From Escherichia coli (lineage in GTDB: Bacteria > Pseudomonadota > Gammaproteobacteria > Enterobacterales > Enterobacteriaceae), in NCBI RefSeq assembly GCF_002854065.1, contig NZ_CP024153.1: a DNA stretch of 64,000 bases, one strand, 5' to 3'. Numbering within the stretch: position 1 is the stretch's first letter; each line of letters starts with the position of its first letter. Positions 45,979 through 47,648 of the stretch are shown here, piece after piece. Both the position numbers and the translations under genes were made by a program. Below the pieces are notes generated by a model, which made no database searches, had not been told where the DNA came from, and worked only from the letters and a program-made list of their open reading frames with translations.

Positions 45979-46462
45979 TGTCTAACAATTCGTTCAAGCC
46001 GACCGCGCTACGCGCGGCGGCTTAACTCCGGCGTTAGATGCACTAAGCACATAATTGCTCACAGCCAAACTATCAGGTCAAGTCTGCTTTTATTATTTTT
46101 AAGCGTGCATAATAAGCCCTACACAAATTGGGTAAAACCGCAAGAACTGTAATTATGAATTTGTCAGAAAACTATCCGTACAAGGAAGTGTATGAAAAAT
46201 GTCTGGTATAATAAAGATATCATCTTGAAAATCGAGTGTTGCTCTGTGGATAACTTGCAGGGTTTAATAAGTATCTTTACTCAAAAGTTGCAATCAATAA
46301 TTTATTGAAAAAGATTGAAAGGTGGTGGTAAATAATGTTACAATGTGGGAGTATCAGTTTAAATTCTTCGTGAAATAGTGTTCTTTTAAGCTAATAAAAA
46401 ATGCACGTGGAATTTAGGTCAAAGAAAAGTAAAGAAAAATTTATTTATGGAGGTAAAAAAGG

Positions 46463-46855
46463 ATGAGTCAAGTTGTTGATTTTTTAAATGAAGCAAAAAC
46501 TTTTTATTTTGCAACCGTTGAAGGAGACCAGCCAAGGGTCAGACCGTTTAATGCAGCCATGGAGAGGAATGGCAAGGTCTATCTTGGTACAACCAATCAG
46601 AAAAAAGTTTATCAGCAGTTATTGGCAAATTCAAAGGTGGAAGTCTCAGGTATGGCAAAAGGAAAATGGATTCGGCTCACCGGCGAAGCCGTAATTGATG
46701 ATACCGTGGAAGCAAGGGAAGCAATGCTTGAAGCAAATCCGCCTTTGAGAGATTGGTATAGCGCTGATGATGGGAAATTCACCGTATTTTATTTGAAAAA
46801 CATGCAGGCAGTTTTATATTCCTTTACAGGAGATCCGGAGATATTAGATAATTAA
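46463..46855 (+). CDS. Pyridoxamine 5'-phosphate oxidase-like (split-barrel FMN-binding) protein
   Basis: 130-aa low-GC ORF with GGAGGT RBS; ...TFYFATVEGDQPRVRPFNAAMERNGKVYLGT... Confidence 0.5.
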   Translation: MSQVVDFLNEAKTFYFATVEGDQPRVRPFNAAMERNGKVYLGTTNQKKVYQQLLANSKVEVSGMAKGKWIRLTGEAVIDDTVEAREAMLEANPPLRDWYSADDGKFTVFYLKNMQAVLYSFTGDPEILDN

Positions 46856-47174
46856 TCAAAACATGCAGCCCAGTGGTAGAATGAACTGACCCCCATAAGT
46901 TAGACCAAAAATCTAACTTATGGGAGGTCATTTTTTATGGCAAAATACAGTTATGAATTTAAGTTACAAGTTGTTCAAGCATATTTAGATTTTTATTTTG
47001 TCCGTTTTGTCTAGCTTACCGAAAGCCAGACTCAGCAAGAATAAAATTTTTATTGTCTTTCGGTTTTCTAGTGTAACGGACAAAACCACTCAAAATAAAA
47101 AAGATACAAGAGAGGTCTCTCGTATCTTTTATTCAGCAATCGCGCCCGATTGCTGAACAGATTAATAATAGATT

Positions 47175-47552
47175 TTAGCTTTTTATTTGTTGAAAAAAGC
47201 TAATCAAATTGTTGTCGGGATCAATTACTGCAAAGTCTCGTTCATCCCACCACTGATCTTTTAATGATGTATTGGGGTGCAAAATGCCCAAAGGCTTAAT
47301 ATGTTGATATAATTCATCAATTCCCTCTACTTCAATGCGGCAACTAGCAGTACCAGCAATAAACGACTCCGCACCTGTACAAACCGGTGAATCATTACTA
47401 CGAGAGCGCCAGCCTTCATCACTTGCCTCCCATAGATGAATCCGAACCTCATTACACATTAGAACTGCGAATCCATCTTCATGGTGAACCAAAGTGAAAC
47501 CTAGTTTATCGCAATAAAAACCTATACTCTTTTTAATATCCCCGACTGGCAA
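47175..47552 (-). CDS. bleO: Bleomycin-binding protein (glyoxalase/VOC fold), pUB110 bleO-like
   Basis: MPVGDIKKSIGFYCDKLGFTLVHHEDGFAVLMCNEVRIHLWEASDEGW...; low GC. Confidence 0.7.
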   Translation of the reverse strand: MPVGDIKKSIGFYCDKLGFTLVHHEDGFAVLMCNEVRIHLWEASDEGWRSRSNDSPVCTGAESFIAGTASCRIEVEGIDELYQHIKPLGILHPNTSLKDQWWDERDFAVIDPDNNLISFFQQIKS

Positions 47553-47648
47553 TGCCGGGATAGACTATTATTCTCCCCGGAGCCACTACGCTGACCCGGT
47601 TGATTTCAGAGGTAAGGGAAAAGGCGACGTTGCGCCTGTGGAACAAAC

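Follow-up and report, generated by a model that had tools for sequence, protein, structure and literature searches.

The AT-rich segment located downstream of aadA2 in the analyzed window, a stretch of 64,000 nucleotides from Escherichia coli contig NZ_CP024153.1, is most probably what is left of an ISEcp1-type transposition unit, formed by the IS1380-family element ISEnca1 and decayed since, and extends from 46133 to 47648. The feature described in the original prediction is confirmed, with every named element being present at slightly corrected coordinates. As proposed, the composition changes behind the cassettes, with the GC content decreasing from 0.52, which is characteristic of the cassettes and of the whole window, to 0.366 between 46133 and 47565 and to values of 0.27–0.44 in 200-bp windows of this part. 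The switch is located at 46132/46133, and on the right the segment is limited by a copy of IS26 whose inverted repeat begins at 47649, as had been anticipated. However, what had been described as one Gram-positive segment is a mosaic, in which the end of ISEnca1 is followed by a gene of the PNPOx family, the stub of an IS3-family element and DNA of pUB110, a four-piece cargo of ISEnca1 that ends in 83 bp of Tn2. The AT-rich composition does thus not continue up to IS26, since the last 83 bp (47566–47648, GC 0.53) belong to the enterobacterial tnpA of Tn2. As the junction between the 3'-conserved segment (3'-CS) of the integron and ISEnca1 is found in identical form in 46 independent plasmid records, the feature reflects neither chance nor an assembly artefact.

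The segment opens with the 3'-terminal 286 bp of ISEnca1 (46133–46418, plus strand), which had been overlooked in the original prediction and are identical to the corresponding part of the annotated element on a Salmonella plasmid (L002). They encode the last 25 codons of the transposase (46134–46211) and terminate in the right inverted repeat (IRR) ACGTGGAATTTAGG (46405–46418, plus strand), which was assigned by direct reading and by alignment with ISEcp1 and which is identical to the repeat quoted for ISEnca1 (PMC9535334). The complete element of about 1655 bp, with its left inverted repeat (IRL) and an intact DDE transposase, is absent from the window, where 1369 bp have been lost on the left side, and full copies were found in L002 and in two further loci (L073 and L078). 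The copy in the window is presumably unable to transpose by itself. Its close kinship to ISEcp1 is reflected in an identity of 94% between the two transposases and in the collinear alignment of 46133–46418 with ISEcp1-blaCTX-M-14. This stretch is 87.7% identical to the 3' end of ISEcp1 as present in thousands of plasmids. The remnant has also retained a predicted outward promoter of the sigma-70 type (46315–46344, plus strand; TTGAAA, 18 nt, TG-TACAAT), which in a promoter scan matched 10 of 12 positions with an extended -10 region and whose hexamers are the same as in ISEcp1 upstream of blaCTX-M-14.

These features place the segment next to the units in which ISEcp1 carries blaCTX-M or blaCMY-2. 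Both elements belong to the IS1380 family and share the same IRR and the same -35 and -10 hexamers of the outward promoter; the PNPOx gene starts 44 bp after the IRR of ISEnca1 and blaCTX-M-14 starts 42 bp after that of ISEcp1, and both kinds of unit take along neighbouring DNA as far as a surrogate right end, which is putative in case of ISEnca1, and generate a 5-bp target duplication. The window differs in the identity of the element and in its cargo, which consists of Firmicutes DNA of unknown function and a broken ble.

The evidence for a single transposition event is provided by the outer ends of the unit. The 83-bp fragment at the right end (plus strand), which matches tnpA of the Tn3 family and is cut by IS26, begins with the sequence TATTA (47566–47570), the right copy of a 5-bp target-site duplication whose left copy adjoins the IRL in L002, where a complete ISEnca1 resides in tnpA of Tn2. 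The unit is thus bounded at both ends by the 5-bp duplication that is characteristic of ISEcp1-type elements. Once the flanks in L002 are joined with a single TATTA, the reading frame of tnpA is kept and the resulting sequence is 100% identical to intact tnpA of the Tn3 family in one piece, with 4023 plasmids covering 80% or more of this joined query. Since removal of one TATTA leaves a seamless join, the DNA from ISEnca1 through bleO behaves as a single ISEcp1-style transposition unit within Tn2. The left junction between Tn2 and the IRL was found in three Salmonella plasmids, and a 27-bp stub of this junction in many others. Between the true IRR and the putative surrogate right end within ble the likeness is weak, with four to five of the 14 positions matching by eye, which is usual for surrogate ends of ISEcp1 and does not constitute proof.

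The first part of the cargo is a gene for a protein of 130 residues (46463–46855, plus strand; WP_000084745.1 in L001, L003 and L060), whose ATG is preceded at a distance of 9 nt by the ribosome-binding site GGAGG and which is probably transcribed from the retained outward promoter of ISEnca1 and by read-through from the integron. In line with the predicted PNPOx-like protein, its product matches the Pfam family PNPOx_N (PF01243), which comprises FMN-binding split-barrel proteins, with 38.6 bits compared to a gathering cut-off of 28.1. It shares 49–53% of its residues with PDB entry 2IG6, which is also the best fold match (TM 0.92–0.94) of an AlphaFold model with a pLDDT of 95.8, and a profile search of the PDB identified 2IG6, 2HHZ and GSP26-like proteins. 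In database records, the gene is labelled as 'nimC/nimA', 'NimC/NimA family' or 'orf63'. The 'NimC/NimA' label is not sustained by our searches, as neither a match to a nim family in NCBIfam at E-values up to 0.1, nor a Nim chain in single-sequence and profile searches of the PDB at E-values up to 1, nor a Nim structure among the top 50 fold matches of the model was obtained. Nim 5-nitroimidazole reductases (NimA-K, with DrNimA, BtNimB and CdNimB as examples) have the superfamily of PNPOx-like FMN-binding split barrels in common with the protein, yet they depend on a conserved histidine (His71 in DrNimA and His55 in CdNimB) and in case of CdNimB contain at least 154 residues (PMC10338468), whereas the protein in the window is 130 residues long, contains no histidine at all and lacks a nim profile match. 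Judged by sequence and predicted fold, it belongs to the PNPOx-like split barrels, with the uncharacterised 2IG6 and GSP26-like proteins as its nearest neighbours, and is not a demonstrable Nim.

The suggested Firmicutes origin holds for most of the segment. The PNPOx gene is 98% identical at the nucleotide level to a Ruminococcaceae genome, and the match to Ruminococcaceae AM07-15 (98.3% over 46419–46990) begins right after the last base of the IRR. Since in that genome (L007) a 33-bp remnant of the ISEnca1 IRR, together with 32 extra bp, also precedes the gene, we do not regard it as the native locus. The plasmid pE211-2 of Enterococcus faecium encodes an identical PNPOx protein and matches the segment with 99.7% identity, including 339 bp of ISEnca1, up to position 46972, where the match is cut by IS1216.

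Downstream of the gene, a 107-bp stub (46884–46990, plus strand) represents the left end of an IS3-family element. It consists of the IRL TGAACTGACCCC starting at 46884, a hairpin (46892–46924) and the start of orfA at 46937, and is cut at 46988–46990; its assignment is based on a terminal repeat that begins with TG and precedes the start of an orfA for an HTH protein. The proposed 25-codon orfA start is present as an open reading frame at 46937–47014, of which the first 18 codons are identical to the beginning of a 131-residue HTH_28/HTH_Tnp_1 orfA in L007, where the stub continues into the full gene, whereas the remaining codons run into pUB110 DNA. ISEfa10-like elements on Enterococcus plasmids are 76–83% identical to the stub.

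The subsequent region (46989–47565, minus strand) contains the terminator of ble (47099–47130) and what remains of the coding part of bleO (47175–47566, minus strand). It is 100% identical over 578 bp to a Staphylococcus aureus plasmid (L004), and the same identity to pUB110-type Staphylococcus plasmids extends over 46989–47566. The pUB110-type bleomycin-binding protein on the opposite strand, which had been predicted, is thus present and, at 297.9 bits, exceeds the cut-off of 275 set for NCBIfam NF000027, although its gene is truncated at the 5' end. The alignment covers profile positions 10–134 of 134, the identity to pUB110 stops at 47566, and compared to ble of Staphylococcus and Bacillus plasmids, whose terminator is conserved, the copy has lost its first codons with the start codon, the ribosome-binding site, the promoter and the adjoining aadD. 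In place of a start, in-frame TAA and TAG codons directly precede the sequence SIPALPVGD (the translation reads E, two stops, SIPALPVGD), with TAG located at 47565–47567. The promoter scan revealed no promoter-like site upstream of bleO on the minus strand, and a hybrid promoter provided by IS26, which we had considered, was rejected on the same ground. With start codon and promoter both missing, a bleomycin phenotype is unlikely and bleO is probably silent. In databases, bleO from such a module has been flagged as 'bleO (partial)' (PMC13041382).

The original prediction had considered the segment to be unusual in an enterobacterial context. This part of the description does not hold, as the module has already been published, is very widespread and is ordinary in enterobacterial plasmids, with descriptions that go back to pOLA52. 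At a coverage of at least 80% of the query, the PNPOx-bleO module is found in 384 plasmids of PLSDB, with records largely from livestock, and for the exact PNPOx protein an index of public assemblies lists 4234 blocks. The module is known as 'IS26-nimC(orf63)-blmS/bleO-IS26' (PMC5645526, PMC7823714, PMC5501952, PMC6387526), and the arrangement 'ΔTn2-IS26-ble-orf-ΔISEnca1' has been described as well (PMC5645526, PMC7823714). It resides on pOLA52, pHNSHP45-2, pHNYJC8, pC629 and many plasmids of the IncHI2, IncF, IncX and IncR types, which are 99.8% identical to the window over 46181–47648 and share the PNPOx gene, the IS3 stub, the truncated bleO and the Tn2 junction with its TATTA. In contrast to the published module, the window lacks an IS26 at 46181–46188 and hence has 48 additional bp of ISEnca1, the element joins the 3'-CS of a dfrA12-gcuF-aadA2 integron at position 46133, and the right-hand IS26 is 46 bp closer, with pOLA52 keeping 46 bp more of Tn2. 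The IS26 of the pOLA52 lineage was inserted at 46181–46188 with an 8-bp duplication that is still visible in L002; since this insertion is absent from the window, the latter descends from an earlier form. Our searches retrieved no literature joining pOLA52 with pUB110 or pyridoxamine with olaquindox. A Gram-positive plasmid combining the PNPOx part with the pUB110 part, or a donor with an intact ble, was not detected in PLSDB, and the IS3-pUB110 junction, with or without an intact ble start, gave zero matches in metagenome contigs of JGI.

A second PNPOx allele, with 67% identity at the amino acid level and about 79% at the nucleotide level, is found on plasmids of E. coli and Salmonella. It is located 52 bp behind another copy of ISEnca1, and the downstream DNA differs from the window. 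This second ISEnca1-PNPOx unit has a length of 3050 bp and is flanked by 5-bp duplications of its own (TAGGA in L076 and TCTCA in L077), thus illustrating that ISEnca1 units move in Enterobacterales. The repeated association of ISEnca1 with PNPOx genes parallels that of ISEcp1 with blaCTX-M. It could be taken as a sign that the block is kept because its PNPOx gene is under selection, for example by reductively detoxifying veterinary drugs with nitro or N-oxide groups, which would also be why ISEnca1 captured it, with bleO and the remainder as passengers, a possibility that we consider rather unlikely. It would agree with the independent target duplications of the second allele, with a third spacing between IS and gene in L007, with the preservation of the outward promoter in the window and in the second unit, with the strong ribosome-binding site, and with the predominance of livestock records and the location next to oqxAB in pOLA52. 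However, no phenotype of the PNPOx gene is reported in the literature searched, a bona fide Nim was not recognised in the protein, and hitch-hiking between IS26 copies beside real resistance genes can explain the abundance of the block. To the same limited degree, it is conceivable that the gene is an uncharacterised selected determinant, which was captured by ISEnca1 from gut Clostridia at least twice. A plausible activity of such a protein would be the flavin-dependent reductive inactivation of nitro or N-oxide drugs given to livestock, such as nitroimidazoles, nitrofurans, olaquindox or carbadox. It was on an olaquindox-resistance plasmid, next to oqxAB, that the module was originally encountered.

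In the window, the block is bounded by two copies of IS26 in inverted orientation, an arrangement with the layout of a (pseudo-)compound transposon. The right copy (47649–48470, minus strand; 822 bp) is a G184N-type variant with two single-base insertions that frameshift tnp26, and the left copy (42769–43588, plus strand; 820 bp) truncates intI1 of the dfrA12-gcuF-aadA2 integron. The whole bounded block is found in 45 plasmids, and no 8-bp duplication surrounds it in the window. In light of these two copies, of the total of eight in the window and of the reshaping of both edges by IS26 in different lineages, the element might itself be held responsible for the assembly of the block, by a stepwise process of cointegrates and deletions within Enterobacterales in which the fragments arrived separately. 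We consider this very unlikely, since neither IS26 nor a scar is found between the IRR and the region upstream of the PNPOx gene or at the IS3-pUB110, pUB110-Tn2 and 3'-CS-ISEnca1 junctions, since the order ISEnca1-PNPOx-IS3 already exists in Enterococcus and Ruminococcaceae and since the outer ends show a 5-bp duplication instead of the 8 bp generated by IS26. Even less credible is the recombination of a single uninterrupted fragment from a Firmicutes plasmid directly into the integron, which would have replaced the 3'-CS and introduced a working bleomycin resistance. The low GC content throughout 46133–47565, the perfect match to pUB110 and the identical PNPOx protein on the E. faecium plasmid would all be accounted for, but not the meeting of four sources at IS ends, the right end, which is a transposition junction with a target duplication in Tn2, the presence of the block in pOLA52 and in hundreds of further plasmids that have no integron next to it and the truncation of bleO.

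On its left side, the segment adjoins the aadA2 cassette (open reading frame at 45187–45978, plus strand), which is the last in the dfrA12-gcuF-aadA2 array and 100% identical to the annotated gene in a collinear locus (L001). The attC crossover of aadA2 (G/TTAGAT) is located at 46033/46034 and is followed by the first 99 bp of the 3'-CS (46034–46132, plus strand), without qacEdelta1 or sul1, with a 100% match in thousands of plasmids up to 46132. The prediction of a 3'-CS remnant preceding the switch was thus correct, although its length is 99 bp instead of about 85 bp and the switch occurs at 46132/46133 instead of near 46126. Compared to a dfrA12-gcuF(orfF)-aadA2 integron with a normal 3'-CS carrying qacEdelta1-sul1, the array and the first 99 bp are alike, whereas in the window the 3'-CS stops at this point and intI1 is cut by IS26. 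Since the boundary is located within the 3'-CS, off the cassette border, and attC-like core-site pairs (R''...R') are absent from both strands of 46133–47648, the segment is not part of the integron, contrary to the context that had been assigned to it. The possibility that IntI1 inserted PNPOx and ble as novel gene cassettes, or that they make up a new variant of the 3'-CS, which is suggested by their place directly after the last cassette, is negligible in view of the same two observations, the opposite orientation of bleO and a junction that on reading its sequence does not fit the consensus of IntI1 secondary sites. The adjacency to aadA2 is instead probably a secondary deletion junction, which contains no IS and no clear microhomology. 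An origin from IS1, which in some plasmids is located 2 bp away and whose end GGTAA resembles the window, was considered, but the resemblance is most probably a 3-nt coincidence. The junction is shared by 46 plasmids of PLSDB, among them p14EC007b and NC_020087, which effectively amount to the known enterobacterial variant of the 3'-CS whose match the original prediction had named as evidence against its view.

Returning to the transposition unit of ISEnca1, its history can be tentatively outlined. ISEnca1 would have been located 44 bp upstream of a PNPOx gene derived from a lineage of gut Clostridia, with an IS3-family element residing just 3' of the gene. On some Gram-positive replicon, pUB110 DNA may then have become attached to this arrangement through the 3' side of its ble. 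With its left repeat at one end and a surrogate site within ble at the other, ISEnca1 would have transposed into tnpA of Tn2 on an enterobacterial plasmid, together with about 1.15 kb of adjacent DNA that comprised the PNPOx gene, the IS3 stub and most of ble with its terminator, thereby generating the TATTA duplication and leaving the start codon and promoter of ble behind. In the lineage represented by the window, a single IS-free deletion would subsequently have fused nucleotide 99 of the 3'-CS to an internal point of ISEnca1, concomitant with the removal of qacEdelta1, sul1 and most of the transposase, and IS26 would have truncated Tn2 at a distance of 83 bp from the unit, with the block presumably now moving between two IS26 copies.

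Collectively, the anatomy of the segment accounts for the presence of Firmicutes DNA in an enterobacterial Tn2 by a single ISEcp1-like hop for which IS26 was not the vehicle. It would be a mistake to view the segment as a rare import from Gram-positive bacteria or its bleO as a functional resistance gene, and the 'bleO' that is listed by surveillance tools from such a module is probably an over-called resistance. The recurrence of ISEnca1 next to PNPOx genes flags a candidate for an unrecognised drug-modifying gene, which thousands of isolates from clinics and livestock already carry.

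Direct reading of 44800-48800 places the segment behind the cassette array dfrA12-gcuF-aadA2, where the aadA2 attC (crossover 46033/46034) is followed by a canonical start of the 3'-CS that stops past ...CAAATTGGG at 46132. The switch in sequence claimed in the original prediction is real, with 99 bp of 3'-CS rather than about 85 bp and a boundary shifted by 7 bp from about 46126. From 46133 on, the GC fraction ranges from 0.27 to 0.44 in 200-bp windows, averaging 0.366 over 46133-47565 compared to 0.524 for the window, and the low-GC segment, the ORFs named in it and IS26 at its right end (starting at 47649) were all recovered by direct reading, GC windows and ORF calls. 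Several plasmids (NZ_CP025339.1 and similar) carry an IS1 whose insertion point within the 3'-CS is 2 bp away from the window junction; the match of its terminus GGTAA to GGGTAA at 46130-46135 is probably coincidental rather than a hint at how the junction arose.

Searched piecewise against 72,556 plasmids, the segment fell into five parts, a mosaic in place of the single Gram-positive-like segment that had been proposed. The first (46133-46418) is the 3' part of ISEnca1, whose transposase is 94% identical to that of ISEcp1. It matches the ISEcp1 3' end at 87.7% in thousands of records and is identical to the annotated ISEnca1 of a Salmonella plasmid (L002, CP082383.2). Alignment with ISEcp1-blaCTX-M-14 revealed a common right inverted repeat (IRR; ACGTGGAATTTAGG, ending at 46418) and common TTGAAA/TACAAT hexamers, which an independent scan also returned as the best promoter-like site of the region (46315-46344). 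The adjoining stretch (46419-46990) matches a 202-kb contig of Ruminococcaceae bacterium AM07-15 (L007) with 98.3% identity, beginning with the base right after the IRR and spanning a PNPOx gene and then the initial 18 codons of an IS3-family orfA. In L007 this orfA continues to a full 131-aa HTH protein; the 25-codon ORF described earlier lies at 46937-47014. It is followed by a fragment (46989-47566) with 100% identity to pUB110-type Staphylococcus plasmids, in which aadD comes after bleO, and by a Tn2/Tn3 tnpA fragment (47566-47648) with a GC fraction of 0.53. The identical PNPOx protein (WP_000084745.1) is also encoded on the Enterococcus faecium plasmid pE211-2, between ISEnfa1 and IS1216 and with 339 bp of ISEnca1 upstream, which together with the Ruminococcaceae and Staphylococcus matches bears out the proposed Firmicutes origin.

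The assembly of these parts is illustrated in L002, where the whole ISEnca1 is kept inside Tn2 tnpA, downstream of blaTEM-1-tnpR. When the 263 bp left of its left inverted repeat were joined to the DNA after the truncated bleO in the plasmid pOLA52, retaining one copy of TATTA, the tnpA reading frame was open and the product matched intact Tn3-family tnpA as a single piece at 100% identity, with 4023 plasmids covering at least 80%. Since the Tn2 flanks rejoin in this way, ISEnca1, the PNPOx gene, the IS3 stub and the pUB110 fragment behave as one unit of about 2.8 kb with a 5-bp target duplication on both sides. It would have moved by ISEcp1-type transposition, which carries the same signature of a 5-bp duplication and a surrogate right end, the latter presumably located within ble. 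Three Salmonella plasmids have the left Tn2/ISEnca1 junction, of which many other plasmids retain a 27-bp stub. In the pOLA52 lineage, IS26 resides within ISEnca1 at 46181-46188, with an 8-bp duplication still seen in L002. Because this insertion is absent from the window and the right-hand IS26 is 46 bp nearer than in pOLA52, the window represents a sister lineage, in which an IS-free deletion would have joined nucleotide 99 of the 3'-CS to ISEnca1. As read from sequence, this fusion was a single event: an identical junction is carried by 46 plasmids, which come from E. coli, Salmonella, Klebsiella, Shigella, Citrobacter, Proteus and Providencia. The entire IS26-bounded block is found in 45 plasmids, and p14EC007b is collinear with the window at 99.9%.

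In the bounding IS26 (47649-48470, 822 bp), one extra base each at 48016 (T) and 47956 (A, within a run of A) breaks tnp26 into ORFs of 144 and 107 aa. Either the element is truly inactivated or the sequence is in error at a homopolymer; in p14EC007b the collinear copy is annotated as intact. The window copy has G184N-type substitutions in common with those at 52602 and 59458. Just past this IS26 follow a 487-aa ORF (48647-50110) resembling eukaryotic-type glutathione synthase (TIGR01986, 236 bits, cut-off 329.8), an IS110-family transposase gene (50528-51532) and a RepE-like fragment cut by IS26. A 40-bp repeat of an IS26 end (AGACAAAAGGCTGCCTCATCGCTAACTTTGCAACAGTGCC; 43589-43628) lies between a complete IS26 (42769-43588) and truncated intI1. 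As a whole, the window forms a multiresistance region in which IS26 inverted repeats start at eight places and which also holds sul3, tet(A), qnrS1, catB3, blaOXA-1, mer genes and aph(3')-IIa. Near sul3 (20519-21310), a 323-aa ORF (22646-23617) passes the general integron-integrase model with 446.7 bits and is assigned as non-class-1, since its score of 294.9 is below the IntI1 equivalog cut-off of 435.

The minus-strand glyoxalase/bleomycin-fold ORF scores 297.9 bits against the NCBIfam bleO model (cut-off 275), at profile positions 10-134 only. As pUB110 identity ends two and a third codons into ble and the upstream codons of the window read TAA TAG, the gene has neither start codon nor ribosome-binding site, and a promoter scan found no promoter, so that bleO is most likely silent on these sequence features. 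At 59285-59457, after aph(3')-IIa, Tn5 ble is present as its initial 58 codons (MTDQATPNLPSRDF...), with IS26 cutting it off at 59458; the two different ble genes of the window are thus both truncated, and neither has an intact counterpart there.

The PNPOx gene (46463-46855; 130 aa, Pfam PF01243, 38.6 bits, cut-off 28.1) appears most likely to be the active gene of the segment, because of its intact IS promoter, a GGAGG 9 nt upstream of the ATG and transcription that may run on from the integron. Its 'NimC/NimA' label originates from the title of PDB 2IG6, a structural-genomics entry from Clostridium acetobutylicum that is 49-53% identical. No nim family is among the NCBIfam matches of the protein, and a search with a 28-sequence profile (E up to 1) brought up none of the solved Nim proteins. 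The confident AlphaFold model (pLDDT 95.8) best matches 2IG6, then FMN binders resembling general stress protein 26, with no Nim structure in the top 50 fold matches. Although the superfamily fold is shared, the protein contains no histidine, whereas Nim proteins need a conserved one (PMC10338468), and these searches together with the absent residue speak against Nim membership.

A second homologue (P0021), with 67% amino acid and about 79% nucleotide identity to the window allele, occurs on E. coli and Salmonella plasmids (54 index blocks). Its gene lies 52 bp behind the IRR of a complete ISEnca1, in a region whose overall identity to the reconstructed unit (IS and gene start) is 95%, with a homologous upstream spacer and a different IS junction. 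Downstream, the DNA differs, with an amino-acid-permease fragment and then about 440 bp of enterobacterial-looking DNA. This 3050-bp unit, found at loci L076-L080 (CP032810.1 and other E. coli/Salmonella plasmid contigs; L078, 2281-5330) with 5-bp duplications TAGGA (L076) and TCTCA (L077), shows ISEnca1 independently capturing another member of this gene family. Among the fetched loci, the closest chromosomal relative of P0021 is from Konateibacter massiliensis (82%). In L007 (QUDE01000005.1, 3754-3818), the gene in its window allele is preceded by a 33-bp ISEnca1 IRR remnant and 32 bp absent from the window, a third spacing besides those of the window and the P0021 unit. This closest non-enterobacterial copy adjoins a MobL-type relaxase gene; it too is located in mobile DNA and so is probably not at the native locus. 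That ISEnca1 inserted upstream of members of a single small gene family on two or three independent occasions, much as with ISEcp1 and blaCTX-M, suggests selection; the alternatives are that the association recurred by hitch-hiking or by a target-site preference of the element.

The segment had been called unusual in an enterobacterial context, which is wrong: 80% or more of its length is covered in at least 384 PLSDB plasmids, the index of public assemblies lists the exact PNPOx protein in 4234 blocks, chromosomes among them, and the module has been published, so the finding is already known. It was described as 'ΔTn2-IS26-ble(blmS)-orf63-ΔISEnca1' beside Tn6010/oqxAB in pOLA52, pHXY0908, pHK0653, pHNSHP45-2 and pHNYJC8 (PMC5645526), in cfr and mcr-1 plasmids (PMC7823714), as 'blmS + nimC/nimA flanked by IS26' (PMC5501952; PMC6387526), in Proteus ICEs (PMC10871549) and as 'bleO (partial)' in Taiwanese Salmonella (PMC13041382). 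The window carries oqxB at 60866-63973, and keeps the oqxAB-PNPOx-bleO association of pOLA52 only loosely. An explicit reconstruction of the transposition unit with its TATTA duplication was not found in searchable papers; ours is a reading of known sequence and not a new object. The segment is therefore an ordinary relic that was described before, and the function of its PNPOx gene is the one lead worth an inexpensive experiment.
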